Source: a candidate division WOR-3 bacterium
GTDB taxonomy: Bacteria; Hydrothermota; Hydrothermia; LBFQ01; DSFT01
DNA: 43,683 bases
Reading direction: 5' to 3'
Assembly (NCBI GenBank): GCA_965649115.1
Contig: CBFGJN010000010.1
Coordinates: 1 to 43,683, forward strand
Numbering within the stretch: the stretch's first letter is position 1; every line of letters starts with the position of its first letter. Positions 4,137 through 37,025 of the stretch are shown here, in pieces. The notes under the pieces were generated by a model. It was given only the letters and a program-made list of their open reading frames with translations, searched no databases and was not told where the DNA came from. A program made the position numbers and the translations under genes.

Positions 4137-4470
4137 TGCTGTGTCTAGTAATTCTAAAATTATTTATTTTACTATATTTTCCCCACCCACCCTAAATTTA
4201 AGCCTACGGCTTTAAAATGCCCATTTTTCGGCTGTGGGGGGCTTCGCCCCCCATAAAAACATTGGACAAAGCAATAGTGTGTGCTTACTGTGTCCAATAA
4301 TTCTGGAAGTATAATTATTCCCATATTTTTCATATCCACCCTAAAAATAAGCCTTCGGCTTTAAAAACCCTATATTTCGGTAGGGGGCTGTCGCCCCCTT
4401 TCAATAACCCCCATATAAGATCAAATTATATATTTCCCCGCCCACCCTATATTCAAGGCTTCACCTTTTC
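4137..4470 (+). mobile_element. Cluster of MITE copies: internally deleted copy 4137-4273, degenerate copy from 4286, fragment about 4425-4470
   Basis: Same left end TGCTGTGTCTAGTAATTCT, CCCACCCACCCTA, AAGCC-N4-GGCTT-type and G6/C6 hairpins, right end GGACAAAGCA. Confidence 0.88.
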
Positions 4471-8493: not shown

Positions 8494-8521
8494 TTTTAAA
8501 ATTTTAAAGGATAGAAAAATT

Positions 8522-8565
8522 TAGTTTTTTCGGCAAGGGGGTTAACGCCCTTATAAAACCCCTAT
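8522..8565 (+). repeat. Short internal MITE remnant
   Basis: TTTTTCGGCAAGGGGGTTAACGCCC...AAAACCCC matches the hairpin region of the element. Confidence 0.55.
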
Positions 8566-8583
8566 AATTCTAAAACTATTTAA

Positions 8584-9225
8584 TTAAAATTTCATAGCGA
8601 CACTTAAACAAACAATATCATTGTACCCTAATTCATTCAAAACTTTAATAGCACTTATCATTGTTGCTCCCGTTGTGATAACATCATCAATCAAAATAAT
8701 TTGGTAATTTTTATATTCAGGAATATCAATACCTATAAATTTATCCTTTGAGTTTTCCCATCTGTCCTTAACCTTCGTTTGACTGATTTTATAACTTGTA
8801 GAAAACAATAGTTTTTTATATTCTAAATTTGTTAATTTTGATAATTCATTTGCAAGAAAATGCGTGTGGTCAAATCCCCTTTCTCTTATTCTTGCTTTAC
8901 TTGTAGGAATTGGAACAATTATTGCTTTCTCCTTAAATAGATTATTTTTTTGAATTTTATGTGCCATCAATTGAGCAAAAAATTTTCCAACTTTCTGAAA
9001 ACCATTATATTTGAAACTTTCTATAAGTTTCTTTGTTCTGTCAGAATAGACAAAAACAGATATAGCTTTTGTAATTCCAAGACTTTTTGTTCTATCAAAA
9101 TCATTAAAATCTTTACTTAATTCAAAAAAGCATTTATTACAACACAAACCATCAGAAACCTCTTTCTCACAAATTAAACACATCGGTGTTATCATTATAT
9201 CCAAAATCATTTTTATAAAATTCAT
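8584..9225 (-). CDS. comF: ComF family double zinc-ribbon phosphoribosyltransferase-like protein
   Basis: CLIC/CNKC zinc ribbon, IVPIP...RERGF, ILIDDVITTGATM. Confidence 0.92.
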   Translation of the reverse strand: MNFIKMILDIMITPMCLICEKEVSDGLCCNKCFFELSKDFNDFDRTKSLGITKAISVFVYSDRTKKLIESFKYNGFQKVGKFFAQLMAHKIQKNNLFKEKAIIVPIPTSKARIRERGFDHTHFLANELSKLTNLEYKKLLFSTSYKISQTKVKDRWENSKDKFIGIDIPEYKNYQIILIDDVITTGATMISAIKVLNELGYNDIVCLSVAMKF

Positions 9226-9264
9226 ATTTAAAATTATTTTTTAAATTCTTAACAAATTCCAAAC

Positions 9265-9430
9265 GGCTATGTCCAATAATTCTAAAAGTCCTTATTTTTT
9301 CTATATTTTCCCACCCGCCCTATGATTGAGCCTTCGGCTCTACTTACCCATTTTTCGGCTTTTGTGGGGCTGTCCCCCCAATCACCTCCTCATTAAATCA
9401 ATAACTTTATTGAAAATTTTATAAGTCATT
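9265..9430 (+). mobile_element. Degenerate MITE copy lacking the right end
   Basis: GGCTATGTCCAATAATTCT, CCCACCCGCCCTA, GAGCCTTCGGCTC hairpin, G/C hairpin. Confidence 0.85.
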
Positions 9431-9460
9431 AAAATATATAATTTGGGGGCAGAATGAGTT

Positions 9461-10351
9461 TTAAAAAATTTTTTTGAAAAATTCATAAGCATTTCTATAA
9501 AAGAAGTTTTCTATTAATTCGTTTGAAAGATATTTTTTCAATAATTTATATAAATTTTTTAAGTGTTTGGGCTCACTTAAATTTTTAATTTGATTTTCTT
9601 TTGAAACACCAAAAAAATCACTGCCTATACAAATTGTTTTTGGAAATTTTTCAATTAATTTACTTATATATTTAGCAATGTCTTTTAATTTCAAATTTGA
9701 AAGGAAAATATCACCAAAAGCTATTCCAACAATCCCATTAACTTTTGAAATTTCATAAATCATATCCTCATTTAAATTTCGCTTTATATTTTTTAGTTCT
9801 CTTAAACCCGTATGTGAAACAAAAACATTGCTTTTAAACTCACCTATAACATCAAAAAATGTTTTATCGCTACAATGAGCCAAATCAATAGCAATATTTA
9901 ATTTTATTGCTTCATTTATTACATCATATCCTAAATCTGTTAATCCATAATCATTCTTACTATTCCAATGTGAGCATATTAAATTATCCTTATTCCAAAC
10001 AAGTCCTAAACTTCTTATACCAAGTCTATGAATTGTTCTAATTTCATATATTGTTCTAACAAAATAGAGTCCTTCAATTGCTAAAATTATGTTTCCACTC
10101 TTAAAATCATTTTTATTTTTAATAATTTTAAGGTGAAAGTTTCTCTCAATTTCATAAGCAATTTCAATACCCCTTAATGTATAAACTAATGGTTCTTCAA
10201 CATCGTAAAATTCATAAAATCTTCTAAATGGAAATATAGCAAATAGAAACTTTTCTATACCTATTTTTTTATAATTTTTTAGAATTTTGGAATTTTGGGG
10301 ATTCTCAATAATGTAATACAAAACATCTTGATGTAAATCAAAAACTTTCAT
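9461..10351 (-). CDS. Membrane dipeptidase (peptidase M19) family
   Basis: DLHQD, LAIEG, LGIRSLGLVWN, GLTDLG, IDLAH, SHTG, IGSDFFG. Confidence 0.9.
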   Translation of the reverse strand: MKVFDLHQDVLYYIIENPQNSKILKNYKKIGIEKFLFAIFPFRRFYEFYDVEEPLVYTLRGIEIAYEIERNFHLKIIKNKNDFKSGNIILAIEGLYFVRTIYEIRTIHRLGIRSLGLVWNKDNLICSHWNSKNDYGLTDLGYDVINEAIKLNIAIDLAHCSDKTFFDVIGEFKSNVFVSHTGLRELKNIKRNLNEDMIYEISKVNGIVGIAFGDIFLSNLKLKDIAKYISKLIEKFPKTICIGSDFFGVSKENQIKNLSEPKHLKNLYKLLKKYLSNELIENFFYRNAYEFFKKIF

Positions 10352-13092: not shown

Positions 13093-13562
13093 TTTCTTTC
13101 GTACGTTCCGAATATCTCACCCTTTGCTATAATTTTACCTTCAATTGCTTTTAAAACCTCCTTTGCACTTGCCCCCTCTTTAAGACCAATTTTCTCAACA
13201 TTTAAAGCATAAATCGTAATGTAATATCTATGTTTTCCATGTCCTCTTGGAGGGCAGGGACCACCATAACCAAGTTTTCCAAAATCATTTTTTCCTTTCA
13301 AGCCAACACTCTCCCCTTCCTTTATTTCATTAACATTTGCAGGGATATCGTACAATATCCAATGATAGAAAGTTCCAATAGGAGCATCAGGATCACTCAT
13401 TATTAGAACAAAACTTTTCGTTTCTTTTGGAAAGTTCTCCCATTTTACATGAACAGATACATTTTCACCTTCACAGGTATATTTTGAAGGTATAGACTCT
13501 GAATTTTTGAAGGAATTACTATAAACTTTTATGTTTTGAATTTCCATAACTAAGAAAATCAT
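13089..13562 (-). CDS. YbhB/YbcL (PEBP/Raf kinase inhibitor-like) protein
   Basis: DPDAP.GTFYHW, GKNDFG..GYGGPCPP..HGKHRY. Confidence 0.93.
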   Translation of the reverse strand: MIFLVMEIQNIKVYSNSFKNSESIPSKYTCEGENVSVHVKWENFPKETKSFVLIMSDPDAPIGTFYHWILYDIPANVNEIKEGESVGLKGKNDFGKLGYGGPCPPRGHGKHRYYITIYALNVEKIGLKEGASAKEVLKAIEGKIIAKGEIFGTYERK

Positions 13563-13592
13563 AACATTTAAAATTTTAAAGCATAAATAAAT

Positions 13593-14474
13593 TGCTGTGT
13601 CTAAGAATTCTGAAAGTATTTATTTTTCTTATTTTGCCCACCCGCCCTGAAATAAAGGCTACGCCTTTAAAATGCCCATTTTTCGGCTGTGGGGGGCTCC
13701 GCCCCCCTAATAATCCCCCCGATAAATCAATAATTTCTTTAAAAATTTTATAAATTATTGATTATCAATCGCTTAGCAATAATTATTGGACAAAGCATAA
13801 ATAAATTGCTGTGTCTAGTAATTCTGAAAATATAATTATTTCTATACTTCTCCCACCCACCCTAAATATAAGCCTTCGGCTTTAACTCCGCCCCCCTTAA
13901 ATTCCCCCCATTATTTCAAGAATTTTAATGAATTTTTAATAAGTTATTGACTATCAAGCACTTAACATTATTTACTGGACAAAGCAATTCTATGTTGCTT
14001 TGTCTAAGAATTCTGAAAGTATTTATTTTTCTTATTTTCCCCACCCACCCTAAATTTAAGCGGACGGCTTTAAAAAACCCCAACTTTTGTTATGGGGGGC
14101 TCCGCCCCCCTGTAATCCCCCCATTACTTCAAGTATTTCAATTAATTCTTAATAAGTTATTGATAATCAATAACTTAACACTATTTACTAGACAAAGCAA
14201 ATTTTTATAAGTTATTGGCTATCAATAATTTAACACCATTTGCTGGACAAAGCATAAATAAATTAGTGTCTTTATTTCCCCATCAGCTCTGAAAATAAGC
14301 GAATGATTTATAAATCTTCGCCCCCTTTAAATTCCCCTTTTTAGGTGCTTTGTCCAAATTTCGGCAAGGGAGCTGTTGCCCCCTTAAATAAACCCCCTTT
14401 AAATCAATAGTTCCCTTAAAAATTTTATAAGTTATTAACAATTAAGGACTTAACATCATTTACTAGACAAAGCA
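13593..14474 (+). mobile_element. Tandem MITE array: 13593-13797, 13807-13986, 13996-14199, right-end fragment to 14254, degenerate piece, 14346-14474
   Basis: Repeated termini TGCT(G/T)TGTC...GACAAAGCA. 9-mer TAAATAAAT at 13584, 13798 and 14255. 9-bp duplication CTTTTTAGG at 14337-14345 and 14475-14483. Confidence 0.95.
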
Positions 14475-14507
14475 CTTTTTAGGCAGTTTCAAGTAGATTT
14501 TTATAAG

Positions 14508-14948
14508 TCATTTTAATTGTTCTAATTTCTTAATAAAGTAATCTAAGGAGCTATTTCTTTGTCTTGCTAAATTAACATCAGAGTTATTAAAATTTATTAG
14601 AATTTCTTGCTTAAATTCAATATCGTTATAATGAGCTTTTTTTCTAATTTCGTCAAATACACTCCTTGTACAAAGAGAAGTATCTCTTAATATATTCGGA
14701 TCTATTGATATTTCTCTGGCAAATTCATCATTAATTAAGGCAAGGTACCAAGACTCTATTTCCTTCTTAACAATAATTATTTTTTCCTTTTCTAATAAGG
14801 TCCTTTGTCAAAATCAGACAAAAAGAAATAATTATGATTGTCTATACTTAATTACTTCATATTCAAGGGGAAATTGAATTTTTCTCAAAAATCTACTTAT
14901 AAAACTCTCATCATCATTACCTTCAACAAAAAACCATATTGTTTTCAT
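14508..14948 (-). pseudogene. Disrupted TOPRIM-like (DUF4276/DUF4435-type) partner of the ATPase
   Basis: ATGA-coupled start MKTIWFFVEGNDDE then early stop. Other frames give FLSDFD and IIIVKKEIESWYLA...ARQRNSSLDYFIKKLEQLK*. Confidence 0.75.
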
Positions 14949-16190: not shown

Positions 16191-17678
16191 ATGAAAAGAA
16201 TTTTATCACCATCAGAGATGAAAGAAATTGATAATAGTTCAAAAATTCCACAAATTGTTTTAATGGAAAATGCAGGAAGAGGTGTTGCTAATGAGATTAA
16301 AGATATTTCAAATAGTTTCTTAATTCTTTGTGGAAGCGGTAATAATGGAGGTGATGGTTTTGTAATAGCAAGATGGCTTAAAAAATTCAAAAAAAATGTA
16401 AAAGTTATTATATTTGATGATAATTTTAAAACAAATGAAACAAAAATTAACTTTGAATTATTAAAAGTTTTTGATGTTGAAATTGAAAAATTTGAAAAAC
16501 AAAAATTCTTGGAGAATATAAGAAATTATGAAGTTATTGTAGATGCGATATTTGGAACGGGATTTAAAGGTTCATTAAAAGATGATTATTATGATGCTAT
16601 TGAAATTTCAAATAATTTAAACAAAATAAGAATAGCAGTTGATATACCAAGTGGTGTAAATGGAGAGAATGGATTTATTGAAAATATCGCATTTAAAAGT
16701 GATATAACATTTACATTTGCTTTTGAAAAACTTGGTCATTATTTATTTGAAGGTAAAATTCATAGTGGGAAAATTAAAGTAATTGATATTGGAATTGAGG
16801 AAAAATTAGCAGAAGATAAGGGATTTTTATATCTAGAGCATAGTGATATTCTAAATTTATTGCCAAAATATAAAGGTTATGAAAGTAAGAGAGATAAAGG
16901 AAAGGTTTTGATAATTGGTGGAAGCAAGGATTATACAGGGGCAGTTATTTTAAATGTTATTGGAGCTTTAAGTAGTGGTGTGGGTTTAATTTATTGTGCT
17001 GTTCCAAAAACTATTTACCCTTACACTGTTGGAAAAATTCCAGAAGCAATTTTAATTCCATTAGAAGATGAAAATGGATATTTATGTAAAAAAAGCTTTT
17101 TGGATTTAATTTCAAAAAATTTGAATTTTGATAGTATTGTTGTTGGAAGCGGAATTTCAAGAAAAGAAAGTGTTAGGGAATTTATGAATGAGATATTAAA
17201 TTTGAATTTAAATAAAATTGTAGATGCTGATGGAATATGGGCTATTAGTGAAAAAATTCATTTATTGGATGAAAAAACAATTATAACACCACATGTTGGT
17301 GAAATGAGTTTTATTGTAAAAAAAGAACCAAAATTCATAGATAGAAATAGAATTAACATTGCTCTTGACTTTTCAAAGAATTATAAATGTGTTTTATTAC
17401 TTAAAGGTAATCCGTCTGTTATTGTTCAAAAGAATTTTAGATTTTTAAATATATGGGGTGATGAAAAATTAGCAAGGGGTGGAAGTGGTGATGTTTTAAG
17501 CGGTTTAATTGGAGGATTTTTAGCACAAAATCTAAGTCCAATTTATAGTACTGTCATTTCAGCTTATTTACATTCAAGAAGTTGTGAATTTTTTGATAAA
17601 CTAACATTTAAACCAAGCGATATTCCAAAAGGCATTAGGAAATTATTATCTTATAAAACTTTCCATCAACGCTTATAA
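16191..17678 (+). CDS. nnr: Bifunctional NAD(P)H-hydrate epimerase/dehydratase (YjeF)
   Basis: LMENAG, CGSGNNGGDG, VDAIFGTG, VDIPSG, VDADG, ITPHVGE, GGSGDVLSG. Confidence 0.96.
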   Translation: MKRILSPSEMKEIDNSSKIPQIVLMENAGRGVANEIKDISNSFLILCGSGNNGGDGFVIARWLKKFKKNVKVIIFDDNFKTNETKINFELLKVFDVEIEKFEKQKFLENIRNYEVIVDAIFGTGFKGSLKDDYYDAIEISNNLNKIRIAVDIPSGVNGENGFIENIAFKSDITFTFAFEKLGHYLFEGKIHSGKIKVIDIGIEEKLAEDKGFLYLEHSDILNLLPKYKGYESKRDKGKVLIIGGSKDYTGAVILNVIGALSSGVGLIYCAVPKTIYPYTVGKIPEAILIPLEDENGYLCKKSFLDLISKNLNFDSIVVGSGISRKESVREFMNEILNLNLNKIVDADGIWAISEKIHLLDEKTIITPHVGEMSFIVKKEPKFIDRNRINIALDFSKNYKCVLLLKGNPSVIVQKNFRFLNIWGDEKLARGGSGDVLSGLIGGFLAQNLSPIYSTVISAYLHSRSCEFFDKLTFKPSDIPKGIRKLLSYKTFHQRL

Positions 17679-20193
17679 TGTAAATTCCACCTCTTATGTT
17701 TAAAATCTCATTTCCTACAATTAATTTTCTATATATTAATCGCCCCTGAACATCGTAAATTGAGAAATTATGTTTGTTTTTAGAAGAGATTTCAAGTTTT
17801 CCATTTTTTGATATAATTTCAAAATCACAATCCTTAATAGTTTCAAGATTTGAAATTGGTGTTGTAGAACATCCTTGACTTATATTTAAAGATGGTTGAT
17901 ATGAAGAAAAATATAAGTTATAAATTGGTTCATAACTACTTGATATTGATGGAATTATAGAATATGAAAAAGGATTGAAATTTGAAGATGAAAAATTTAT
18001 ATTCTGTGTACAATAAGATTTTATAACCGCAAAACCACCTACTGCATTTAATTGAGAACCAAGAAAACTTATTAAGAAGAATTTATCATTAGCATAACTT
18101 ATTATTCCTTTTGCTTGATTTGAATTTACATTTAATGGAGGATTTAACCAGGCTTTTGCCCAAATTAAATTTCCATTATTATCTATTTTAATAGCTATTG
18201 GATAAGATGAATTATTATTTGCTCTAACAAAACCTGAAATTAAATAATTATTAGGTGGATAAAAACCATTACAATAATAACTATTTAAATTTTTGAATGT
18301 CCAGTAGGACTGCTTTGGATTATTATTAATATCATAAATACCCCAAGTTTTTAAACTATTATCTACAACAAAATCTTTCAATTGAAACCAAGTAGCAAGT
18401 GCTATTCTACTATCATTATTTAATGTATTAAAGCCTGTTATCATATTATTTGATTGTCCATTTTGTCCTACTACTGATGATTCCCATCCAAATTCCGAAA
18501 CCCAGATTTTCTTATTTGTGTTTTGTCCTTCATGAAAAATTACTTTATTCCAAACAAGATTTACATTATTAATTATTGCACTTGAAATAGCATTAGAATT
18601 TGTAGAATTTAATAAAACATAAATATGCATTCCAATACCATCAAGTGGATAAGAACCTGTTAAACTTTTAATCCAATTCCAATTCCAAACATTCTTTCCG
18701 TACCAATAAGTGCTATCTATGTACTTATCACCTTTGCTTATATCATCAGTTAGAAGTGGTCCAGAAATAAGTTTAACATCATTAACATTATTATTTATTT
18801 TTATATTTTGATATAAATCAGCAAGAATTTTTGAAAACCACTTTGGATGTATCCAATAACTATTTATTTCTGAAATATAACCATTAGGTTCATTTATTGA
18901 TTCAAAAACCTTAATCCTATCTTTGAAATGAAGAACTATACTTGTAAAATTTGAAACATATTCATTTATCCAACTATTAACTGCATTCATATCATTTGGA
19001 TTTTCATAACTTAATAAATACCCTACCCAAGTTTTAACAGCTTCATGACCTATAAGGGCATAAACCTTAACATTATGACTTACAAAATTATTGATTATTT
19101 GATCATAAACATTAAACAAATCGCTTATTGAATTAAATGCTTGGGCATATATAAAATTAACTCTTACACAAGGTGTACAAGTGCTGTATATTTGATTAAA
19201 ATTAACCTTTATTTGTCCTGTTATTGGATCAATTGGTTGTCCAATATCAAGACATTTATTTGGCATTACATCAATTCCTTGATTTTCAATAGTTATATTA
19301 TATCCTCTATCCTCACTACTCCAACCTACTACATTTGAAGAATAAATTTTTGAAAATTTTATATTTCCATTAAAATCAGTTTTTAAAACAATAATGTCAT
19401 CATCTCCAAATTGACTTCCACATAAAGGTCCAGCTGTTAAGCACCTTGTCCCTACTATTGTATATCCATCATTATCAATAATAAAATTTTGTGAAACTTC
19501 ATGAGCATAAAAATCGTATCCTTTCGACCACAAAACATTTCCATTATTATCAATTTTCATCAAAGCAATATCATTATTTTGACCATTATTTCTAATAAGA
19601 AGTGCAACATAACCATTACCATCATATTTAATACTCATTATCTTATCACAAACGCTATTTAAATTATATCGTTTTTGCCATATTAAATTTCCATAAAAAT
19701 CAGTTTTCATAATAATTGAAGAGCAACTATCATCAAATGCTAAAATAAAATTATTTCCATCATAAGTAATACCCATCCCTGGTTCCTCACCTTTTGTTGA
19801 AGCTTTTCTATATTTTGCCCAAAGGAAATTCTTCGTTTTTATATTAAAAAGACCATAAAATGAGCAATTTTGATTAGGACATTGACTTGGATTATCTGAA
19901 TTGTAATTTCTTCCATGACCTCCAATAACAGCAATAAGACTATCATTAATTTTAATAATATCATTTATTCCTAAATTGTCAAGATTGTGATTAAAAGCTC
20001 TATACCATTTTATATTTAATGAACTATCAAAAGCTAAAAGAAATGGTGTTAAATGATAATTATAATGATATGAGCCAACAATAAAAAGTGTATCAGAAAT
20101 TTTAATAGATGGTATTCTATGACAAGTAAAACATCCAAAAGATGAGTAGTTTATCCAAACAACATTGTTTGAGGATATAATCAAGAACAACAT
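17635..20193 (-). CDS. T9SS-CTD protein: beta-propeller with inserted clan GH-A glycoside hydrolase domain
   Basis: KTD..GN..W propeller repeats on both sides of a segment with SINEPN and WVSEFGW; C-terminal IYDVQGRLI...GIYII. Confidence 0.8.
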   Translation of the reverse strand: MLFLIISSNNVVWINYSSFGCFTCHRIPSIKISDTLFIVGSYHYNYHLTPFLLAFDSSLNIKWYRAFNHNLDNLGINDIIKINDSLIAVIGGHGRNYNSDNPSQCPNQNCSFYGLFNIKTKNFLWAKYRKASTKGEEPGMGITYDGNNFILAFDDSCSSIIMKTDFYGNLIWQKRYNLNSVCDKIMSIKYDGNGYVALLIRNNGQNNDIALMKIDNNGNVLWSKGYDFYAHEVSQNFIIDNDGYTIVGTRCLTAGPLCGSQFGDDDIIVLKTDFNGNIKFSKIYSSNVVGWSSEDRGYNITIENQGIDVMPNKCLDIGQPIDPITGQIKVNFNQIYSTCTPCVRVNFIYAQAFNSISDLFNVYDQIINNFVSHNVKVYALIGHEAVKTWVGYLLSYENPNDMNAVNSWINEYVSNFTSIVLHFKDRIKVFESINEPNGYISEINSYWIHPKWFSKILADLYQNIKINNNVNDVKLISGPLLTDDISKGDKYIDSTYWYGKNVWNWNWIKSLTGSYPLDGIGMHIYVLLNSTNSNAISSAIINNVNLVWNKVIFHEGQNTNKKIWVSEFGWESSVVGQNGQSNNMITGFNTLNNDSRIALATWFQLKDFVVDNSLKTWGIYDINNNPKQSYWTFKNLNSYYCNGFYPPNNYLISGFVRANNNSSYPIAIKIDNNGNLIWAKAWLNPPLNVNSNQAKGIISYANDKFFLISFLGSQLNAVGGFAVIKSYCTQNINFSSSNFNPFSYSIIPSISSSYEPIYNLYFSSYQPSLNISQGCSTTPISNLETIKDCDFEIISKNGKLEISSKNKHNFSIYDVQGRLIYRKLIVGNEILNIRGGIYIISVDGKFYKIIIS

Positions 20194-20207
20194 ATTCTCA
20201 CCTCCTT

Positions 20208-21713
20208 TTAATCAATTAAAACTTTTATAACTTTATTTTTAATTTTTAAGAAATAAATACCACTCTGCTCTAAGCGAATAAAATCACTAACACCTTTTTT
20301 AAACAAAGAACCATCAATTTTATAAATTGAATAATCAACAATTTTATTAAATTTAATAGTTTTGTTTAAAATTTCGTACTTAAAATTATCGCTTTCATAA
20401 ACTTCAACAGGTGTAATAGGCTTACAATTATTATCTGAAACATTCGTGGTATTATAATAAACATATAAGCGAGCTGATTGGCCGTTATAAATTCCCGCTA
20501 CAATATCAGGTTTTTTATCAGAATTAACATAACCCACATCAAGTCCATAAATTCCATAAGGACCATTATTACTTTCAATTATACGAACTTGCCAGTTATT
20601 ATTTCCAAGATTTTCAAGCCATCCAAGACCATTATTTGGAACAGGGACATCTGTATATCTTGTTGAATCATATTTAAGGCCAGAAGCCCAAACAATATCA
20701 TTATCACCATCACAATCAATATCTGCTATTTTTAATTCACAAGTTCCAAATTTAACATTAGGTAATAAAACATTAACACTCTGAAAATTCAAAGGATTTC
20801 CGCCTTGATTCATTCTTATTGAAATCAAAGCACTATCATTCCCAAATGATGTACAACTAACTATATCAGGCCTATTGTCATTATTTAAATCTCCTACTGC
20901 TACACCATGATAGTAATAATCAATTGTTAATGAATACTTGTTTGACCAACCATTACCCAAATTTAATCTATAATAAACCGAACCTTGACGAACATAATTT
21001 CCCCTTGAACAAACAAAATCAATTCTTCCATCATTATTTAAATCAGCCAATGAAAGTCCCTCATCACAAGCATAATCTAAATTTACAAGACTATCAACTC
21101 TAACAAGTGTATTTGAAACATAATTATATTTAAACAAAGAATAACCTTCATCTGTAAAGTAAATATCACTACCATAAGCGCTTATATGATTTGGAAAAGT
21201 AAATCTATTATTAGTTATAGTATAATCGCTAAAATTACCATTGCCATTATTAATTAATATATTTAGTGTTCTACTTAAAGCTGAAACGTTTGCTATATCT
21301 ATTTTACCATCATTATTGAAGTCTCCAAGTGTTAAACCATAAGGTAAATATCTTGACTGGCTACCAACAGGCACACAATTGAAATTACCAAGTGATGTTT
21401 GATAAGCTATTCTCACAACTCCAAAAGCATTATTATTACTATCAGCTGTTATAAAAACAATATCATTTAGTCCATTATTATCAATATCTCTTATAAGACC
21501 TTTATCGTTTATTAAAGTGACAAACTTATTGCCAGGAATGAATGGTGATGAACATATTTGAACTTTGTTAAATGTTGCATTTCCATAAACAATAGGAGCA
21601 AGGACAATATCTTCTATCTTTTGAATTTCAGCAACTTTTCTACTATCAATAGCTAATCTAACTATCTTATCATAAAATGGTGAGTCACCTAAGAAACCTA
21701 AAATCCAAAACAT
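20208..21713 (-). CDS. FG-GAP/VCBS repeat protein with T9SS-type CTD
   Basis: DFNNDGKIDI, DLNNDGRIDF, DIDCDGDNDI; IYKIDGSL...GIYFLK. Confidence 0.88.
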   Translation of the reverse strand: MFWILGFLGDSPFYDKIVRLAIDSRKVAEIQKIEDIVLAPIVYGNATFNKVQICSSPFIPGNKFVTLINDKGLIRDIDNNGLNDIVFITADSNNNAFGVVRIAYQTSLGNFNCVPVGSQSRYLPYGLTLGDFNNDGKIDIANVSALSRTLNILINNGNGNFSDYTITNNRFTFPNHISAYGSDIYFTDEGYSLFKYNYVSNTLVRVDSLVNLDYACDEGLSLADLNNDGRIDFVCSRGNYVRQGSVYYRLNLGNGWSNKYSLTIDYYYHGVAVGDLNNDNRPDIVSCTSFGNDSALISIRMNQGGNPLNFQSVNVLLPNVKFGTCELKIADIDCDGDNDIVWASGLKYDSTRYTDVPVPNNGLGWLENLGNNNWQVRIIESNNGPYGIYGLDVGYVNSDKKPDIVAGIYNGQSARLYVYYNTTNVSDNNCKPITPVEVYESDNFKYEILNKTIKFNKIVDYSIYKIDGSLFKKGVSDFIRLEQSGIYFLKIKNKVIKVLID

Positions 21714-21717
21714 ATTC

Positions 21718-23235
21718 TCACCTCCTTATAACAAAAGCCTTTTCAAAAACTGCTGTATTATTATATACTTTCAATAAATATGCTCCCGAAGGTAAGTTGA
21801 ACTGAGTTTTTAAGGATTTTATTGTTCCATCTAAAATTTTTACACCCTGTAAATTGTAAATATCAAATTTTGAATTTAACAGTGAGTTTGAAACTATTAA
21901 ATTTCCTTTAATATCTAATATAATTTTCAAATTTTTATTTTCAAAATTACTTACAGGTGTAACCCCACAATTACCTCCACTTATATTATAAAAAACTCTA
22001 AAAAATGCTAATTCCATTAACCCAACATTTGAAGCACTTAGTACAATATCAGGTCTATTGTCATTATTCAATAATCCTACATTTAGTCCATAATTGCTAT
22101 AATTCTTACTATCAATAATATAATTTGTCCATCCTCCACCACCAATTGTGGGATTATTTATCCAGCCTGCTGAAGGACCTGCATTAGTATAACCTTCTTT
22201 TTTACCCATTCCTCTTATCCAAACAATATCATTATCGCCATCACAATCTAAATCATATACTTTAACTTCGGACGCTTGAAGGTTAGAACCAACGGAGATA
22301 CTTGCTAATAGCGAAAATGTAGGGGGATTACCACCGTTATTTTTATAAACTAAAATAGCATCATTTTGATCATCAGTTATTACAACATCTAATTTACCAT
22401 CATTATCCATATCTGCAACAGCAACACTATGATAATAACCAGGTGTTGTAGTGATATTATATAAACCACTCCAATTAGAGCCTTGTCTAAGCTGAAAAAC
22501 AACATTTCCTGGACCTCTAAAATATCCCTTTGAACAAACAATATCCAATTTACCATCATTGTTTAAATCACCAATTGCTAATCCTTCTGCACAATAATTA
22601 TTTATTTTTGAACTTGAAACACCATTATAAAAATGAACACCTTGATTTGAACCATCACTTTTACCCTCATCTGTAAAAACAATTTCATTTGATGATAAAA
22701 CCGCAATATGATTTATATAATAAAATGTATCACTTATGGTTGAATTATATAACATTTGTTCAGAAAAGTTTTGATTACCATTATTTATAATTTCTCTTAA
22801 TTCTCCACCACCTGAAACCACATAAGCAATATCAATTTTTCCATCATTATTAAAATCATAAGAAGTAATACCATAAGGATTAGAACCATATAATGTATTT
22901 ATTTGTTTTAGGGAGAAATTAAGAGCTGAATTTTGAAAACAAATAGCAACCATTCCAAATCCAGAAACATCGTACTGATAAACACCAGCTATATCATTAT
23001 ATCCATTATTATCAAAGTCTTTAATTAAACTATTAGTAGGAGCTACCAACTTTGTCATATAAGAATATGTTGAACTTATACATACCGAGTCTTCATAGAA
23101 TGTAAGAGGACCTGCTTGGATAAATTTTGAAGAACTATCATTTTTGAGTATCTCATAAGCCTTATTTTCTATATTCTTTTGAAAAAGTGATGTTTGATAA
23201 GGTGTCCAAATTTGGCTTATTAAAAACAAAAACAT
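21718..23235 (-). CDS. FG-GAP/VCBS repeat protein with T9SS-type CTD (paralog of 20208-21713)
   Basis: DFNNDGKIDI, DMDNDGKLDV, DLDCDGDNDIVW; IYNLQGVKI...LPSGAYLLKV. Confidence 0.88.
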   Translation of the reverse strand: MFLFLISQIWTPYQTSLFQKNIENKAYEILKNDSSSKFIQAGPLTFYEDSVCISSTYSYMTKLVAPTNSLIKDFDNNGYNDIAGVYQYDVSGFGMVAICFQNSALNFSLKQINTLYGSNPYGITSYDFNNDGKIDIAYVVSGGGELREIINNGNQNFSEQMLYNSTISDTFYYINHIAVLSSNEIVFTDEGKSDGSNQGVHFYNGVSSSKINNYCAEGLAIGDLNNDGKLDIVCSKGYFRGPGNVVFQLRQGSNWSGLYNITTTPGYYHSVAVADMDNDGKLDVVITDDQNDAILVYKNNGGNPPTFSLLASISVGSNLQASEVKVYDLDCDGDNDIVWIRGMGKKEGYTNAGPSAGWINNPTIGGGGWTNYIIDSKNYSNYGLNVGLLNNDNRPDIVLSASNVGLMELAFFRVFYNISGGNCGVTPVSNFENKNLKIILDIKGNLIVSNSLLNSKFDIYNLQGVKILDGTIKSLKTQFNLPSGAYLLKVYNNTAVFEKAFVIRR

Positions 23236-23239
23236 ATTC

Positions 23240-24895
23240 TCACCCCCTTATAAGAATTTTTCTTTTTATGGTTTTGTTCTCATATTCAAGCCTTAAAATG
23301 TAAAAACCCTCTCTTAAAGACAATTCAAAATTGTTTTGATTAAACTCATTTCTATAAATAAGTGTTCCATCAATTTTATAAATAGTTAAAACTTTCAATG
23401 ATTTTATTTTTGAATTGATTTTCAAAATTTTTCCTTGATTAATAATACTAATTTCACAATCTTGGTAATTTTCAGAATCACTCAAAGGTGTTAATAAACC
23501 GCAAGCAACCTTTTTTGAAACATTAACATTTAATGAAGTGTAATTTACATTAGAAACTAAAACTGGAACATTAGTATATAAATTCCAATTATTTCCATTT
23601 GATAATGTTATACTTTGATTTACATCTGGAATAAAAGTTCTCCAATAACAAGTATCTTGAATACCACTATCTGCTGCCAAAACCCCATCCCAATTACCAT
23701 TTGAAAAATTAGTGTTATTAATCCAACCAACTGCATAAGCAATACCACCCTTTACCGTTATTCCCCTTCCCTCTCCCGTTATTGGAAGCAAATATCTAAT
23801 ACTTATCAAAGAACAATTAGATTTATTAATTTTTGCATAAAATAAATTCCCATAAACTAAACTATTGTCATAATTCAAACCACCAGTAATATAATAATAA
23901 CTTGAACCCTCTTCCACATCAATACCAAAATCATGATTAAGACTACCAAATCGCCTAGCACAAACCAAATTACCGTTTTGGTCAATTTTTAAGAAAAGAA
24001 TATCAGAATTTGAAGCACCTCCATCTATATGTTCCGCTACAATAATACTACCATCTGATGCTAATTTCGCCCATGTTAAACGATTTACACTTCTATTTCT
24101 ATTATAAACCTTTTGCCAAATTAAGTTTCCATTATTTATATTAAACTTTCCAATCCATATATTATTATTTGAAGCTCCAAAAGCAATGATATTTCCATCA
24201 CTACTTTGAAGAACACTATTAATTCCTCTATAAGCAAGAACATTATCCATCGTATCACCTACTGCTCTAATCCAAGTTAAATTTAAGTTTTGGTCAAGTT
24301 TTGCTACAAATCCTTGTGTTGTTGAAATCCAAGCATTATTATAAAACCTTTCATATTGGATTTCACCTCCAATTACAAATCCATTATCAGTTGTCCTTTT
24401 TATACTAAGAATTCTTAACCAATTATTTATAGTTGGATCTCCCCAATTATCATGAAATCTTTTTGCAGTTATAAATGAACCATCGCTGTTATTTAGCTTT
24501 ATTATAAAACCTTCATTTGTCGCACTTGGTAAATTAGTACAAAAATTATAAGAACCACCATCAGGAGTACATGAAATTCCTACAATTACGATATTGCCAT
24601 TATCATCATAATCAAATCTATAAGACCAATCATTCAAATTTGGAACACCAATGACCCGTTCCCATAAGCTTGAACCATAAGGATTTGTTTTAATAATAAT
24701 GAAATCCGAACCCGAAGAATTATCTATTTTATAACTGCCACTTGTTAAGAAGTTGAAAATAATGGAATTACCAGGTGCATAAAAATCAACCCTTTCAAGA
24801 TAATCTAAATTAGAACCTCCATAGGTCCTAAGTCCTGACCAAGCCTGAGCATTCAAAACTCCAAAGAAAAATAAAATCAGATAAAAGCTCCTCAT
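23240..24895 (-). CDS. Secreted beta-propeller protein with T9SS-type CTD
   Basis: Normal signal peptide (MRSF...LNA), TYGG/KLD..G repeats, IYKIDGTLI...GFYILRL. Confidence 0.85.
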   Translation of the reverse strand: MRSFYLILFFFGVLNAQAWSGLRTYGGSNLDYLERVDFYAPGNSIIFNFLTSGSYKIDNSSGSDFIIIKTNPYGSSLWERVIGVPNLNDWSYRFDYDDNGNIVIVGISCTPDGGSYNFCTNLPSATNEGFIIKLNNSDGSFITAKRFHDNWGDPTINNWLRILSIKRTTDNGFVIGGEIQYERFYNNAWISTTQGFVAKLDQNLNLTWIRAVGDTMDNVLAYRGINSVLQSSDGNIIAFGASNNNIWIGKFNINNGNLIWQKVYNRNRSVNRLTWAKLASDGSIIVAEHIDGGASNSDILFLKIDQNGNLVCARRFGSLNHDFGIDVEEGSSYYYITGGLNYDNSLVYGNLFYAKINKSNCSLISIRYLLPITGEGRGITVKGGIAYAVGWINNTNFSNGNWDGVLAADSGIQDTCYWRTFIPDVNQSITLSNGNNWNLYTNVPVLVSNVNYTSLNVNVSKKVACGLLTPLSDSENYQDCEISIINQGKILKINSKIKSLKVLTIYKIDGTLIYRNEFNQNNFELSLREGFYILRLEYENKTIKRKILIRG

Positions 24896-24987
24896 ATTTT
24901 TACCTCCTTTTTATACTTTCCCGACCCAAAAGGGTCGGGAGGGGGGAGGTGAGAGTACGTTATTTTTTTAACGCCATCTGGAAACAT
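24892..24987 (-). CDS. Putative 31-aa leader peptide (not in ORF track)
   Basis: Strong SD AAAGGAGGTGA; MFPDGVKKITYSHLPPPDPFGSGKYKKEVKI*; its TGA overlaps the ATG of the next gene. Confidence 0.55.
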   Translation of the reverse strand: MFPDGVKKITYSHLPPPDPFGSGKYKKEVKI

Positions 24988-25000
24988 ATTCTCACCTCCT
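24900..25000 (-). promoter_or_regulatory. Structured 5' leader: perfect 9-bp GC hairpin and anti-SD segment
   Basis: TCCCGACCC-N4-GGGTCGGGA at 24919-24940; 24945-24961 is complementary to 24983-24999. Confidence 0.65.
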
Positions 25001-25140
25001 TTTCAAAGTTAATCATATAGTATATAAATTATAACTTTCACTTTGATAAAAACTTATTAATTTTTAGCTGAAAGAAAGATAAATTTTTAAAAATTTTTAA
25101 AAATTTTTAAATTAGCTTTATAATTTTCAAACTAAGTAAA

Positions 25141-26919
25141 ATGAAAAATTGTGCCAATAGAAAAGATATTCTTTTAAAGTACAAAATCTACAAGGCATTA
25201 AAAAATAGAATTCCAATTTCAAAAATTTCCAAAATTTATAAAGTTAGCACAAAAACAATAATTGAAATAAAGAAAAATGGATTTTACAAGATTGACAAGA
25301 TAAAACTAATGATAAATGAAATTTTAGAAAAGGAGCCAAAGCTAACACTTTCACAAATAAGACAATTGATAAAACAAAAATATAATATAAATTTATCAAT
25401 ATCAGCAATTCACTATAAACTATCAAAAACGTTGGATAAAAAACTTGTTAAAATTGTGGAACTACTTATTGAAGATGAAGAATATGATGAAGCAGTTAAA
25501 ATTTTATCCCAATTTTTGTACTTATCAGTTGAAAACTTCTACTTATTAGAAAAAATTGAAGATAATTTGTTAAATTATTCATTATTAGCAGATAAGTACT
25601 ACCACCTTCTTTATTCAGGAAAACTTCAAGTTAATGAAAAAATTTTAGAAATGTGTGAAAAATATATGGAAATTTGTAAAAAAAGACAATTGAATTATAG
25701 TTATTACAAGTGGTTAAATCTAAAATTAAGAATTTTACAAGCTCTTGGAGAATACGAGGAAGTTATTAAAAATTTCAATTATAGCGAAATTATTAAACTT
25801 CCATTTAATTTAAAATCTTTCATATTAGCAGTTGTTTGTTCCTGTGGAATTATCTTAAATAATAAAAATGGAATAAAATGTTTAAATTTCTTTAAAAGAA
25901 GGTTTAAAAGTAAGAGAAATCAAATTAAGGAAATAAGTGAGGATTATAAAAGTTTTTTAATGAACCAATATGTTAGTCTTGGAATGCCAAAAATTGCTTA
26001 TCAATATAAAAAATCACCAATTTTAGATGTTTTTATGGGAAATTATAGAAAGTTCTTTAAAATTTACCATACTTTAACCATTGAAATGAAAATTCCAAGC
26101 CAAATTTTAATTAGCTGGTGTTATTTATTTACAAAAAATTTTCTTCTATTTCTAAAAATGGCAAATAAAATACAAAAGAATTTAGAAAAATTTCCATCAT
26201 ATAGAGACAATTTTATTATGACATTAGCATTAAAAGAAATAATATGGGGAAATTATGAAAATGCTAAAAAACTATTAAGCTCTTCTTCACTAAATGCCTT
26301 AAAAGCAATTGCTGAGAATAATCCAAATATTCTTGGAAAATATAGGAAGTATGAATTATTAGCAAAAAATTTAATTAAAGGGAATATAAGAAGGGCAGTT
26401 GAAATAGCAAGAAGATATGGAATTATAACTCATTTAAGAATATATACACTTTTTACAAAAAGATCACCAAAAGTTATTGGAAAATATAAAGAATTAAAAA
26501 TTGTTTCTTATATTTTAAGGAATAGACCAAGACTTTTAAAATTTTACTTTTTAAGAAAAAAACCAATTATAAAAATTGAAAATAAATTAATTAAATCATC
26601 GGGAAGAGAAAACGATCTTTTTGCCCTTCTTTATTATATGGTTCTTGAAAAATCAAATTCAAAAACAGCCAATATATATGAACTTGAAAGGGAAGGCTTC
26701 AAAAACCCCATTTCAAAGGTATATAATATAAATAGAAAAATTGGATATAAAGTTCTTTTTGTTCGCAATAATTATATTTATTTAAATGCTAATGTTTGGA
26801 CGGATATTGACGAATTTTTAAAAACAAAGAATGAAAAATTATATAAATGCTATCCATTTGATAAGTTATCATTTAAATATAGATGGGCTGACTTTTATAG
26901 AGATTTAATAATTATCTAA
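25141..26919 (+). CDS. Putative transcriptional regulator (N-terminal tandem HTH, helical/TPR-like middle, C-terminal winged-helix/BTAD-like region)
   Basis: ISKISKIYKVSTKTI and LTLSQIRQLIKQKYNINLSISAIHYKL HTH-like segments; C-terminal YIYLNANVWTDIDEF; divergent from the T9SS operon. Confidence 0.6.
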   Translation: MKNCANRKDILLKYKIYKALKNRIPISKISKIYKVSTKTIIEIKKNGFYKIDKIKLMINEILEKEPKLTLSQIRQLIKQKYNINLSISAIHYKLSKTLDKKLVKIVELLIEDEEYDEAVKILSQFLYLSVENFYLLEKIEDNLLNYSLLADKYYHLLYSGKLQVNEKILEMCEKYMEICKKRQLNYSYYKWLNLKLRILQALGEYEEVIKNFNYSEIIKLPFNLKSFILAVVCSCGIILNNKNGIKCLNFFKRRFKSKRNQIKEISEDYKSFLMNQYVSLGMPKIAYQYKKSPILDVFMGNYRKFFKIYHTLTIEMKIPSQILISWCYLFTKNFLLFLKMANKIQKNLEKFPSYRDNFIMTLALKEIIWGNYENAKKLLSSSSLNALKAIAENNPNILGKYRKYELLAKNLIKGNIRRAVEIARRYGIITHLRIYTLFTKRSPKVIGKYKELKIVSYILRNRPRLLKFYFLRKKPIIKIENKLIKSSGRENDLFALLYYMVLEKSNSKTANIYELEREGFKNPISKVYNINRKIGYKVLFVRNNYIYLNANVWTDIDEFLKTKNEKLYKCYPFDKLSFKYRWADFYRDLIII

Positions 26920-32077: not shown

Positions 32078-32132
32078 TCACACTTTACAACTTGTTAATT
32101 TTGAAATTTTAAAGGATAAAAAATTATTTTGC

Positions 32133-32336
32133 TGCTGTGTCTAAAAATTCTGGAATTATTGATTTTTTTTATTTTTCCCACCCACCCTAATAATAAGCCT
32201 TCGGCTTATAAATGCCCATTTTTAGGCTTTGGGGGGCTTTGCCCCCCATTAGACCTCCCATTAAATCTATAACTTCTTTAAAATTTTTATAAACTATTGA
32301 TAATCAAGGACTTATCATTATTTATTGGACAAAGCA
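32133..32336 (+). mobile_element. MITE, full-length copy (204 bp), no intact target duplication
   Basis: TGCTGTGTCTAAAAATTC ... TTATTGGACAAAGCA with both internal hairpins. Confidence 0.92.
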
Positions 32337-32394
32337 TTAAATTAAAGCAAAATTTAATATGATTATTTCTATTTTTTGCCTGCCTTGAAATTAA

Positions 32395-34769: not shown

Positions 34770-37025
34770 TTATATAAACTTTTCTATTATGAACTTTGAA
34801 AGCTCATCGTTCATCTTATAAACTCCTGAAATCAGCTCATTAAGGAAATTATCAATTTCTTGATTTTTGGTTATTGAATTTATTTGTTTTATATAATTTT
34901 CTTCAATCTCCCTACATACATCTTTCCAACCACTTGTTATAATTGAAGGCAAATTGGATGAAATTTCGTTATAAACTTTGTTTCTTATTTCATTGGCCTT
35001 TTTGTTAGCATAAATAAAAAGCAATATTAATAAAATTGAAGAAACGACTATGCCATAAATAGGCTTCGCAAAAATATACTTTACAAGTATTCCTAATACA
35101 ATAGAACCAATTATTCCCAACAAAACTTGGATAAATAGATTAGGGTAATTAGTATCTAATCTATAATCAAATTTCAGATTTGGTTTTTTTTGTTTAAAAT
35201 TTGAATCTAAATCAAAAATTTTAATAATTGAGATATTATTTATCAACATCTTAGCTTTAATAATCATCTCTTTATGAAAAAATTCGCTTATCCCATCAAT
35301 GTCGGCAGAAATTTTATTATTTAGCTTCTCATTTAGGTTACTTATCAACTTCTTAATAACACTTTCTCCTTTTGTAATAATATCAAAATTTGAAATTTTA
35401 TGAAGACCCTTTTTTAAGTTTTCCAAGTAAAAATTTATATAATCTTTATCCCATTTCCTAACCTTAGTCATATTCTCTTCAAAGACTTCAATAAGTTCAT
35501 CTCTTATTATATTTAAATTGGTTTTGAAAGTAGAAACATAAGAAGCAATTATGATAACATTTCGTAAGAACTTAACCAATTTTTCATCATTCTTAAACTT
35601 CTTGGCAGATGCCGGAATATAACCTAAAATTCTGTTCTTTGGATAAATTTGTTCAACCTTTTGCTTTATATAATCTATACGTTCTTGAATTTGATTTTTT
35701 TCTTCACCTTCAAATAAATCTATTTTATTTAATATAAAAAGAATGTAAATTTCCTCACGCTTTGCTCTCTCCTTTACAATCTCTAAAAATTCAGCATCAA
35801 ATTTACTTAAACCTTTTGATACGCCAAGCATCCAAATAATAATGTTATAGTTATTCTTTTTAAGGTAATCACTTAACTCATTATTTATGCTACCATCATA
35901 ACCAGGAAAGTCAGATATTCTAACAAATTTTAAAAATTCTTGCGTTTCAGAATTAAACTCATTTAGATCCCATATCTTAACAGTTTCAGCACTTCCACTT
36001 GCCAAGAACTTTCCATCAGGACTAAATGAAACTGAATTAACACTATCAGAATGTCCTTTTAATGTTTCCATCTCTTTCCAACTCTCAACTTCCCATATCT
36101 TGATTGTTTTATCACGACTTCCACTTGCCAAAAACTTTCCATCAGGACTAAATGAAACTGAATAAACACTATCAGAATGTCCTTTTAATGTTTTTATTTC
36201 TTTCCAAGTTCCAACTTCCCATATTTTGATTGTTTTATCACTACTTCCACTTGCCAAGAACTTTCCATCAGGACTAAATGAAACTGAATAAACACTACCA
36301 GAATGTCCTGTTAATGTTGTTATTTCTTTCCAACTTCCAACTTCCCATATCTTAATTGTTCTATCCCAACTTCCACTTGCTAAATACTTACCATCAGGAC
36401 TGAAAGAAATTGAAAAAACACTATTAGAATGTCCTTTTAATGTTTTTGTTTCTTTCCAAGTTCCAACCTCCCATATCTTGATTGTTTTATCATAACTTCC
36501 ACTTGCTAAAAACTTACCATCAGGACTAAACGAAACTGAAAGAACACTATTAGAATGTCCTGTTAATGTCTTAATTAGCTTCCAACTCTCAACTTCCCAT
36601 ATCTTGATCGTTCCATCCTCACTTCCACTTGCTAAATACTTACCATTAGGACTAAATGAAACTGACACGACATAATCAGAATGTACTTCTAATGTTTTAA
36701 TTAATTTCCAACCTCCAACTTCCCATATCTTGATTGTTTCATCCTCACTTCCACTTGCCAAGAACTTTCCATCAGGACTAAATGAAACTGAATAAACACT
36801 ATCAGAATGTCCTGTTAATGTTGTTATTTCTTTCCAACTTCCAACTTCCCATATCTTTGAGTCACGACTTTCATTGATACCAAGCAAAAGGTTTAGAAAT
36901 GAAGATTTACCAATAAACTTTACACCAAAAGTACACATTTCAGGTCTATTTACAAAGTATTTCTTTCTTTCTTTTATTCTTCTAACCTTGTCTTCAATTT
37001 TCCATAGAATTTCATCTATCATCAC
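34770..37025 (-). CDS. Dynamin-like GTPase with inserted 7-repeat WD40 propeller and two TM helices
   Basis: G1 GVKFIGKSS, WD40 x7, G3 DFPG, G4 NKID, G5 SAK, helical stalk, hydrophobic hairpin. Confidence 0.85.
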   Translation of the reverse strand: MMIDEILWKIEDKVRRIKERKKYFVNRPEMCTFGVKFIGKSSFLNLLLGINESRDSKIWEVGSWKEITTLTGHSDSVYSVSFSPDGKFLASGSEDETIKIWEVGGWKLIKTLEVHSDYVVSVSFSPNGKYLASGSEDGTIKIWEVESWKLIKTLTGHSNSVLSVSFSPDGKFLASGSYDKTIKIWEVGTWKETKTLKGHSNSVFSISFSPDGKYLASGSWDRTIKIWEVGSWKEITTLTGHSGSVYSVSFSPDGKFLASGSSDKTIKIWEVGTWKEIKTLKGHSDSVYSVSFSPDGKFLASGSRDKTIKIWEVESWKEMETLKGHSDSVNSVSFSPDGKFLASGSAETVKIWDLNEFNSETQEFLKFVRISDFPGYDGSINNELSDYLKKNNYNIIIWMLGVSKGLSKFDAEFLEIVKERAKREEIYILFILNKIDLFEGEEKNQIQERIDYIKQKVEQIYPKNRILGYIPASAKKFKNDEKLVKFLRNVIIIASYVSTFKTNLNIIRDELIEVFEENMTKVRKWDKDYINFYLENLKKGLHKISNFDIITKGESVIKKLISNLNEKLNNKISADIDGISEFFHKEMIIKAKMLINNISIIKIFDLDSNFKQKKPNLKFDYRLDTNYPNLFIQVLLGIIGSIVLGILVKYIFAKPIYGIVVSSILLILLFIYANKKANEIRNKVYNEISSNLPSIITSGWKDVCREIEENYIKQINSITKNQEIDNFLNELISGVYKMNDELSKFIIEKFI

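Follow-up and report, generated by a model that had tools for sequence, protein, structure and literature searches.

The stretch of DNA analysed here (43,683 nt from a candidate division WOR-3 bacterium, assembly GCA_965649115.1, contig CBFGJN010000010.1; hereafter the window) carries a four-gene operon of putative type IX secretion system (T9SS) cargo genes headed by a structured 5' leader. A sequence-only reading had flagged this leader as an RNA switch of a type it did not recognise, in which a leader peptide and an anti-Shine-Dalgarno (anti-SD) segment would govern the first gene. Comparison with the host genome and its relatives, together with folding models, points elsewhere: with confidence that is about evenly balanced, the leader can be regarded as a mini-cistron remnant in which a hairpin would keep an inherited anti-SD occupied. 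It would have been assembled from the lineage's own gene-boundary modules, arranged as a ribosome-binding site (RBS)/start cassette carrying SD1, an inverted cassette that begins with TAA 21 nt further on, a GC hairpin and the SD of gene 1 (SD2). This view builds on what the modules are, on their recurrence behind intact genes, on their patchy distribution and on the model folds. Evidence for a new class of switch was not found; the element can be classed as an SD-sequestering leader hairpin with an upstream open reading frame (ORF).

Coordinates are those of the whole stretch, and all parts of the leader lie on the minus strand (Table 1). G000 denotes the host genome and G001 a related genome; C20, C33, C47 and the like are contigs, L042–L045 loci from a metagenome scan, P0003–P0009 entries of a protein collection and X2–X9 sequencing runs.

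The physical description given by the sequence-only reading holds throughout: the two arms, their pair counts, hairpin 2, SD2 and the small ORF are all present. The arms of hairpin 1 join through 15 Watson-Crick pairs, one G-U pair and one A.C mismatch, and an AAAA upstream of the 5' arm (to 25003) lengthens the complementarity to the 3' end of 16S rRNA (...GATCACCTCCTTTT, taken from its reverse complement in contig C47). The leader ORF of 31 amino acids, said to stop on the ATG of gene 1, is borne out, with a perfect RBS and an ATGA overlap. Its Pro-Pro-Pro (PPP) run is likewise present but is not conserved, being absent from the peptide versions of L042, P0003 and P0006, and the C tract from which it derives is common, in varied form, to C20, G001 and L042. 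The leader had also been described as a GC-rich island, and GC content does rise to 43% in 24892–25000 and 63% in 24919–24961, compared with 27% for the window; such an island is nevertheless unremarkable in a genome with 239 perfect GC-rich hairpins, nearly all of them copies of a miniature inverted-repeat transposable element (MITE).

The SD1 cassette, AGGAGGTGAGAATATGTT, is a near-perfect complement of the 16S rRNA 3' end and stands in identical form before genes 3 and 4, while gene 2 has the near-identical AGGGGGTGAGAATATGTT. Judged by sequence, SD1 is the operon's standard RBS/start cassette and not specific to the leader. The 3' arm, whose reverse complement is GGAGGTGAGAGTACGTTA, belongs to a recurring motif, TAA-N5-TCTCACC(T/C)CCCC. 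In the form TAA-N5-TCTCACYYCC it has 13 matches across five genomes of the genus, most of which are genuine gene starts, patterned as GGAGGTGAGANNATGTTA, read on the opposite strand; this was verified for the case on C55. Three matches are orphans adjoining a GC hairpin: the flagged locus, G000:C20 and G001:C33. On C20 the motif and hairpin lie behind the stop of an intact 637-aa cargo gene (7872–9785) as TAA-TTTAC-TCTCACCTCCCC-ACC-GCCCCCGTAAGGGGGC-TTTT, a proper terminator; on G001:C33 the motif trails the stop of an intact 746-aa cargo gene, the immediate upstream neighbour of the gene 1 orthologue, and reads TAA-AACAG-TCTCACCCCCCC-T-TCCAGCCC-TAATTTAC-GGGCTGGA, followed after 12 nt by GGAGG. 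The TAA stands exactly 5 nt ahead of TCTCAC at the flagged locus, C20, G001 and L042, and the 15-mer TACTCTCACCTCCCC is shared exactly by the flagged locus and the 3' flank of the C20 cargo gene, for which no orthologue was found at E up to 1e-20 in 20 relatives.

Since the inverted cassette and the GC hairpin trail the stops of intact cargo genes in the genus, deletion of an upstream cargo gene is the most likely origin of the leader. Such a deletion would have run from just after the start of that gene to just before its stop, leaving a mini-cistron, and would have joined the gene's RBS cassette to the inverted cassette and hairpin formerly behind its stop. An upstream cargo gene is still present in G001, where it is intact, and in L044/L045, which fits this origin. 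The best relative of the G001 upstream gene in the host genome is only 31% identical and lies elsewhere, and the 751-aa gene of the window is unrelated to it.

Accessibility was modelled for a 153-nt leader between 37 and 80 °C. Modules 1 and 2 are predicted to form a very stable mRNA hairpin locking SD1 and the leader start codon (AUG1): the unpaired fraction is at most 0.02 for SD1 at every temperature, 0.11–0.24 for AUG1, and at most 0.03 for the anti-SD, whose partner is SD1. SD2 is 0.33–0.76 unpaired and forms no pairs with the anti-SD, and the AUG of gene 1 is about 0.9 unpaired. When the SD1 region is blocked, the ACCUCC anti-SD pairs with SD2 at a probability of 0.62–0.99. Hairpin 1 would thereby occupy an anti-SD that might otherwise close SD2, a pairing that belongs to the folding model. 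By default gene 1 would be translated from its own open SD2, while initiation on the 31-codon ORF would be rare and its peptide probably has no function of its own. The two hairpins may stabilise the 5' end of the message, and such stabilisation would account for the retention of the element, which would be kept under constraint without acting as a ligand, temperature or stalling switch.

These predicted states bear directly on what the sequence-only reading had proposed. Its mutually exclusive folds survive in part: the anti-SD can pair with either SD in the model, but there is no competition at equilibrium. The suggestion of a translational attenuator is not supported, because a resting fold with SD1 locked and SD2 largely open is the reverse of the erm type, and thermometer-like behaviour does not show in the model, where SD1 is predicted to be at most 2% unpaired throughout 37–80 °C. 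In erm/cat attenuation a leader peptide acts through alternative hairpins, the leader SD being open and the second SD sequestered by default. The flagged locus resembles these systems in that a small ORF, served by an SD of its own, precedes the regulated gene with its second SD and that one segment has more than one possible partner. Here, however, the leader RBS is predicted to be inaccessible and the RBS of gene 1 not to be sequestered at rest, and a conserved stalling motif is lacking; none of the three defining features tested was found, and erm/cat attenuation is the least similar mode of working. ROSE and fourU thermometers are SD-sequestering hairpins too, and share with the leader an SD and a start codon buried in a hairpin of the 5' untranslated region (UTR). 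In the leader the model keeps the stem shut at temperatures up to 85 °C, the locked SD is not that of the cargo gene, and no Rfam family matches.

The distribution of the modules among relatives is patchy. A close orthologue of gene 1 was found in one of 40 related genomes (G001, 58% identity), and one metagenome scan added L042 and L043 (81%) and L044 and L045 (62%), the other 16 loci reaching at most 28%. L042 and L043, identical to each other over the 450 nt upstream given for them, share the divergent neighbour and the spacer with the flagged locus. In both, the SD1/anti-SD hairpin is kept and the unit GGGAGGTGAAAATATGTTTCCAGATGGAGTAATGTACTCTCACTTCCCC occurs as a tandem pair repeating every 57 nt; the GC hairpin and SD2 are missing, and the ORF from the first ATG runs open and in frame into gene 1. 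In G001 the C-rich motif, the GC hairpin and SD2 are present, SD1 and the leader are absent, and both arms of the hairpin (TCCAGCCC/GGGCTGGA) differ from those of the flagged locus with complementarity kept. L044 and L045 contain no leader parts, the upstream cargo gene abutting gene 1. The protein collection holds three 588-aa versions, one fragment with a single in-frame copy (MFPDGVIYSHFPQKYRNCMRFF...) and two entries, P0007 and P0008, for which gene callers took the downstream ATG of gene 1. In another hot-spring sample (run X2), a single contig of low depth shows hairpin 2 with unchanged stems but GAAA (mRNA sense) instead of UUUU as the loop. Because SD1, the GC hairpin and SD2 do not occur together in these relatives, there is no conserved three-part unit, and the idea of a three-part switch inherited as a whole is not supported: L042/L043 and G001 each hold a subset, and L044/L045 nothing of it. 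A separate arrangement is seen at L023–L036 and at G000:C1:3530-3810, where gene 1 paralogues and distant orthologues are preceded by a conserved ORF of about 95–100 aa (MWLII..SQ...) that reaches or overlaps the start of the cargo gene.

The same data can be set against the idea that the leader ORF is translated and acts as a switch, which we consider unlikely. Initiation at SD1 would then free the anti-SD and close SD2, and ribosome passage or stalling (at PPP, with EF-P involved) together with the AUGA overlap would set the translation of gene 1; in a variant, ribosomes covering the C-rich tract would alter Rho-dependent read-through. The strong predicted pairing of the anti-SD with SD2 once SD1 is occupied would suit such a mechanism, as would an ORF that begins with an ATG behind a perfect extended SD and overlaps gene 1 at ATGA. 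Both Rho and EF-P are encoded in the genome, and all three allele types observed share the N-terminus MFPDGV..YSH.P. Relative to L042, both loop substitutions are synonymous in this frame and the indels are multiples of three. Against this, SD1 and AUG1 are almost wholly paired in the ensemble, L042/L043 lack PPP, SD2 and the GC hairpin, G001 lacks SD1 and the leader, and the peptide has no homologue in 40 relatives. The synonymous/non-synonymous signal, moreover, is not significant because it comes from only about three independent alleles. As to translational coupling of an upstream ORF to the next gene, the ATGA overlap is present here; among the relatives, none but the closest lineage retains the ORF, and there it is joined to gene 1 in one frame.

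Another proposal is that SD1 and AUG1 form a real, regulated start whose lock in hairpin 1 is opened by a trans factor (for instance a protein, a helicase or a small RNA), co-transcriptionally or by heat, driving an N-terminally extended gene 1 in the L042 type and a coupled upstream ORF in the window. The leader ORF is in frame with gene 1 in L042/L043, P0003, P0005, P0006 and P0009, where the ATG of gene 1 has no SD; gene 1 of L042 is under purifying selection (codon positions 1, 2 and 3 identical at 86%, 92% and 71%), and the 57-nt duplication preserves the frame. However, the predicted lock stays shut up to 80–85 °C in both lineages, including the weaker L042 version of the hairpin, we know of no candidate trans factor, and many genes of this genome start without an SD, so that gene 1 of L042 may use its own ATG. 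A regulated start of this kind appears unlikely.

Conservation relative to L042 was used to weigh constraint on hairpin 1. With the C tract it is identical in 45 of 48 ungapped columns (11 columns are gaps), well above the identity at four-fold sites of gene 1 (62%, 88/141) and of the divergent gene (74%, 90/121), the binomial P being 6e-7 and 6e-4, respectively. The loop is about 9 nt shorter in L042 (gaps of 6 and 3 in the alignment). Of the three substitutions in the arms, the third gives an A.C mismatch, whereas the other two replace C by U and so retain G.U pairing when the RNA is read in this sense; no double compensatory change separates the hairpin 1 arms of the two loci. These comparisons bear on whether the structure is a functionless relic, or an inverted repeat acting at the DNA level in protein binding or recombination, with no role in RNA. 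As each arm copies a cassette that is ubiquitous, rearrangement would suffice to create the repeat; L042 has the unit as a tandem duplicate, and on C20 the cassette stands at both ends of the gene, its two copies inverted, matching perfectly over 13 nt and about 1.9 kb apart. We nevertheless hold a relic or DNA repeat to be very unlikely, as identity exceeds that at four-fold sites, two of the three arm changes preserve pairing only as G.U, and an arm spacing that differs by about 9 nt between loci is hard to square with a dimeric operator.

Several points weigh against the mini-cistron reading and should be read beside its support. The G001 upstream gene starts without a similar cassette or an MFPDG-like peptide, and the 22-aa frame that ends at the vestigial TAA has no Pfam match, neither of which favours a deletion origin. 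In the L042 type, where SD2 is missing and the ORF is in frame with an intact gene 1, SD1/AUG1 may be a working start. The 245-nt spacer is 91–100% identical to L042 in ungapped columns throughout, save a 13-nt stretch at 77% (segments besides hairpin 1, in succession: 25/25, 51/56, 39/41 and 10/13), and since the rest of the spacer is equally conserved the constraint does not single out the hairpin. In the frame of the small ORF neither loop substitution alters the peptide, and the indels measure 6 and 9 nt; such frame-keeping changes hint at coding, though the events are too few. Hairpin 1 alone (16 of 17 positions paired) is predicted at -22.2 kcal/mol at 37 °C and -6.6 kcal/mol at 75 °C and to remain closed up to 80–85 °C, but these are model energies extrapolated to high temperature, where nearest-neighbour parameters are unreliable.

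The two hairpins fold far better than shuffled sequence. The 141-nt RNA is predicted to form exactly hairpins 1 and 2 at -43.4 kcal/mol, against -29.0 +/- 3.6 kcal/mol for shuffles (z -3.95), and none of 200 shuffles folds as stably; the 22-nt GC hairpin has no match in 100 shuffles of the window. The number of pairs by itself, on the other hand, is unremarkable in 27%-GC DNA, the minus strand having 24 stems of at least 16 of 17 pairs with loops of 3–40 nt (mean 7.7 in 30 shuffles). Genome-wide, 20 of 4581 GG[AG]GG sites have their own 10-nt complement (at most one mismatch) within 110 nt; two of these are the flagged locus on either strand, and 18 are, by eye, MITE hairpins, G-runs or loose matches. 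The unusual point at this locus is that the paired partner is an RBS.

Searches for known families returned little. The whole window gave no Rfam match at gathering thresholds. With E up to 10, the region 24500–25500 gave sub-threshold hits only, to eukaryotic miRNA or snoRNA families or weak leader families (best E 0.28 at 21.8 bits against a 60-bit cut-off; top score 23.9 bits against a 50-bit cut-off), and a tRNA/tmRNA scan found none. Neither the 31-aa ORF has a match in Pfam nor its peptide a homologue in 40 related genomes, and DNA searches of the 40 relatives yielded only RBS-like matches of about 20 nt and one AT-rich match of 50 nt. Derivation of the element from the approximately 205-bp MITE was rejected, as the 119-nt element finds only itself and short RBS-like matches in its own genome. 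The 15-mer TACTCTCACYTCCCC had at least 120 matches in a scan of genome contigs, scattered over all phyla, and these are chance matches. Runs X2, X3 and X4 contain no contig across 24928–25052, and X9 no matching contig; no structural alignment of the motif with hairpin 2 was obtained from three sequences, and the genus is exhausted by primary-sequence searches.

Among known systems, the nearest idea by analogy is the C-rich anti-SD behind a stop codon reported for Staphylococcus aureus icaR, whose 3' UTR carries such a motif that pairs with the message's own SD (PMC3868564); the 5'/3'-UTR interaction reported for Bacillus subtilis hbs is a related case (PMC5737220). The likeness would lie in the C-rich anti-SD motif CACCUCCCC just behind cargo-gene stops, and most clearly in C20, where the RBS of the gene, GGAGGTGAGAGTATG, matches over 13 nt, without a mismatch, the complement of the motif past its own stop, about 1.9 kb away. 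At the flagged locus, in contrast, the partners are 21 nt apart in a 5' leader and not at opposite ends of a message. Anti-RBS motifs past cargo-gene stops amount to three cases in two genomes, and in the G001 upstream gene the complementarity of the motif to its own RBS is weaker than in C20.

It is tempting to extend this analogy to the cargo genes themselves. With an inverted copy of their own RBS cassette directly behind the stop, the 3' end of the mRNA could fold onto the RBS and gate translation, as in icaR but in a deep-branching thermophile, or the inverted copies could allow whole genes to invert; the leader would be a collapsed version in which a locked spare RBS serves as an anti-anti-SD deciding whether SD2 opens; we regard this extension as quite unlikely. 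As an observation in its own right, G000:C20:7840-9810 (L226) places a cargo gene between an RBS cassette and its 13-nt inverted copy, an arrangement that may allow either mRNA end pairing or gene inversion.

Other comparisons concern the ORF and hairpin 2. Leader ORFs of Salmonella mgtCBR and mgtA are reported to have proline codons and to depend on EF-P (PMC3641672, PMC5299641). In a further reported case, a sequestered RBS is unfolded through an upstream ORF (PMC8092293). The leader shares with mgtCBR and mgtA a short ORF, consecutive Pro codons and overlapping RNA structures, and EF-P is encoded here; the likeness is nonetheless superficial, as the Pro run owes its existence to the C tract and is missing from the nearest alleles, and the predicted resting fold leaves the RBS of gene 1 unsequestered.

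Intrinsic terminators and intercistronic stabiliser hairpins are known classes that hairpin 2 resembles in being GC-rich and placed behind a (former) stop, its C20 counterpart having a TTTT tail. It differs from terminators in that a U tract is lacking here and in G001 and that the hairpin lies 11–12 nt before an SD. An intrinsic terminator at hairpin 2 was rejected: the tail is AAGUAUAAAAA, without a U tract directly behind the stem, and a terminator scan reports none at the site.

If the mini-cistron reading is true, a regulatory-looking RNA structure would have been built from recycled gene-boundary modules and would not belong to a dedicated riboswitch-like family. This carries a caution for sequence-only scans, in which any anti-SD-like motif can pair with every nearby SD. 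The anti-RBS motif past cargo-gene stops could also point to translational control through mRNA end pairing in an uncultured thermophilic phylum, for which, to our knowledge, nothing is known of post-transcriptional regulation. The practical importance is modest, as one operon of one genus-level lineage is concerned.

Table 1. Positions of the leader parts, the operon and the adjoining features in the window
Feature	Position	Strand	Remark
Conserved block GTTTTTATCAAAGTGAAAGTTATAATTTATATACTATATGA, with TATAAT	25013-25053	-	candidate promoter/operator; 39/41 identical to L042
5' arm of hairpin 1, RBS cassette with SD1 and ATG	24999-24983	-	GGAGGTGAGAATATGTT
AUG1 (leader ATG)	24987-24985	-	inside 5' arm
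31-codon ORF	24987-24892	-	MFPDGVKKITYSHLPPPDPFGSGKYKKEVKI; TGA overlaps gene 1 ATG as ATGA
Loop of hairpin 1, 21 nt	24982-24962	-	TCCAGATGGCGTTAAAAAAAT
3' arm of hairpin 1, inverted RBS/start cassette, anti-SD mimic	24961-24945	-	AACGTACTCTCACCTCC
CCCC tract between hairpins 1 and 2	24944-24941	-	source of the Pro-Pro-Pro codons of the small ORF
Hairpin 2, perfect 9-bp GC stem, loop UUUU	24940-24919	-	TCCCGACCC-TTTT-GGGTCGGGA
11-nt spacer, then SD2	24918-24902	-	spacer AAGTATAAAAA, between hairpin 2 and SD2
SD2 of gene 1, GGAGGT	24907-24902	-	11 nt past hairpin 2
Gene 1 ATG	24895	-	start of four-gene operon
Four-gene operon of secreted proteins	17635-24895	-	co-directional, 4-14 nt between genes
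Gene 1	23240-24895	-	Por_Secre_tail below cut-off, 18.1 vs 27 bits
Gene 2	21718-23235	-	FG-GAP repeats
Gene 3	20208-21713	-	FG-GAP repeats
Gene 4	17635-20193	-	DUF6383 match below cut-off
Promoter motif of divergent gene	25115-25129	+	GCTTTATAATTTTCA; 16.3 bits, position weight matrix
Divergent 592-aa gene	25141-26919	+	no Pfam match

The C-termini of all four operon proteins resemble T9SS sorting domains by eye. The junctions of genes 1/2, 2/3 and 3/4 (23230–23249, 21708–21727 and 20189–20209) share the cassette A(G/A)G(G/A)GGTGAGAATATGTT, and at junctions 1/2 and 2/3 the TGA within it is the stop of the preceding gene. Because that TGA is the upstream stop, the end of the sorting domain (…IRG*, …IRR*) encodes the SD of the next gene. 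A further RBS-related sequence occurs at about G000:C66 8380–8470, in a CRISPR-array-like stretch with the repeat GTTTCATCTGAACGTAGTGGAATTTAAAC, one spacer of which is the reverse complement of the RBS-like AAAAAAGGAGGTGAGAGTAG...

The usual promoter motif of this genome (1.85 Mb, 27.6% GC) was re-derived as CTTTAAAATTT. On the operon strand its weight matrix gave a best score of 5.6 bits and no convincing site. Genome-wide, CTTTAAAATTT(T) has 1147 exact 10-mer cores; of 260 MITE ends examined, 87 are followed by the motif at a distance of 19 nt, and a start codon or tRNA 5' end often comes about 8 nt after it, a spacing that points to many leaderless or near-leaderless mRNAs beside strong-SD genes. 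In the divergent spacer, three tandem 10-nt units of TTAAAAATTT at 25070–25105 closely resemble the promoter motif but contain an additional A; this stretch is partly conserved in L042.

Elsewhere in the window, copies of the approximately 205-bp GC-hairpin repeat lie at about 600–870, 4100–4470, 9246–9430, 13557–14520 (four to five in tandem) and 32097–32380; its core is GGGGGGC-NNN-GCCCCCC, and many copies stand at contig ends. Seven tandem 126-nt repeats occupy 35860–36915 inside the 751-aa gene; pairwise comparison of this gene resolves ...SVSFSPDGKFLASGS... units, which we take to be putative WD40-like repeats. Finally, a duplication of about 600 nt, 96% identical (39471–40078 and 43079–43683), links the 1156-aa gene with an ORF that runs off the end of the window (frame 42079–43683).

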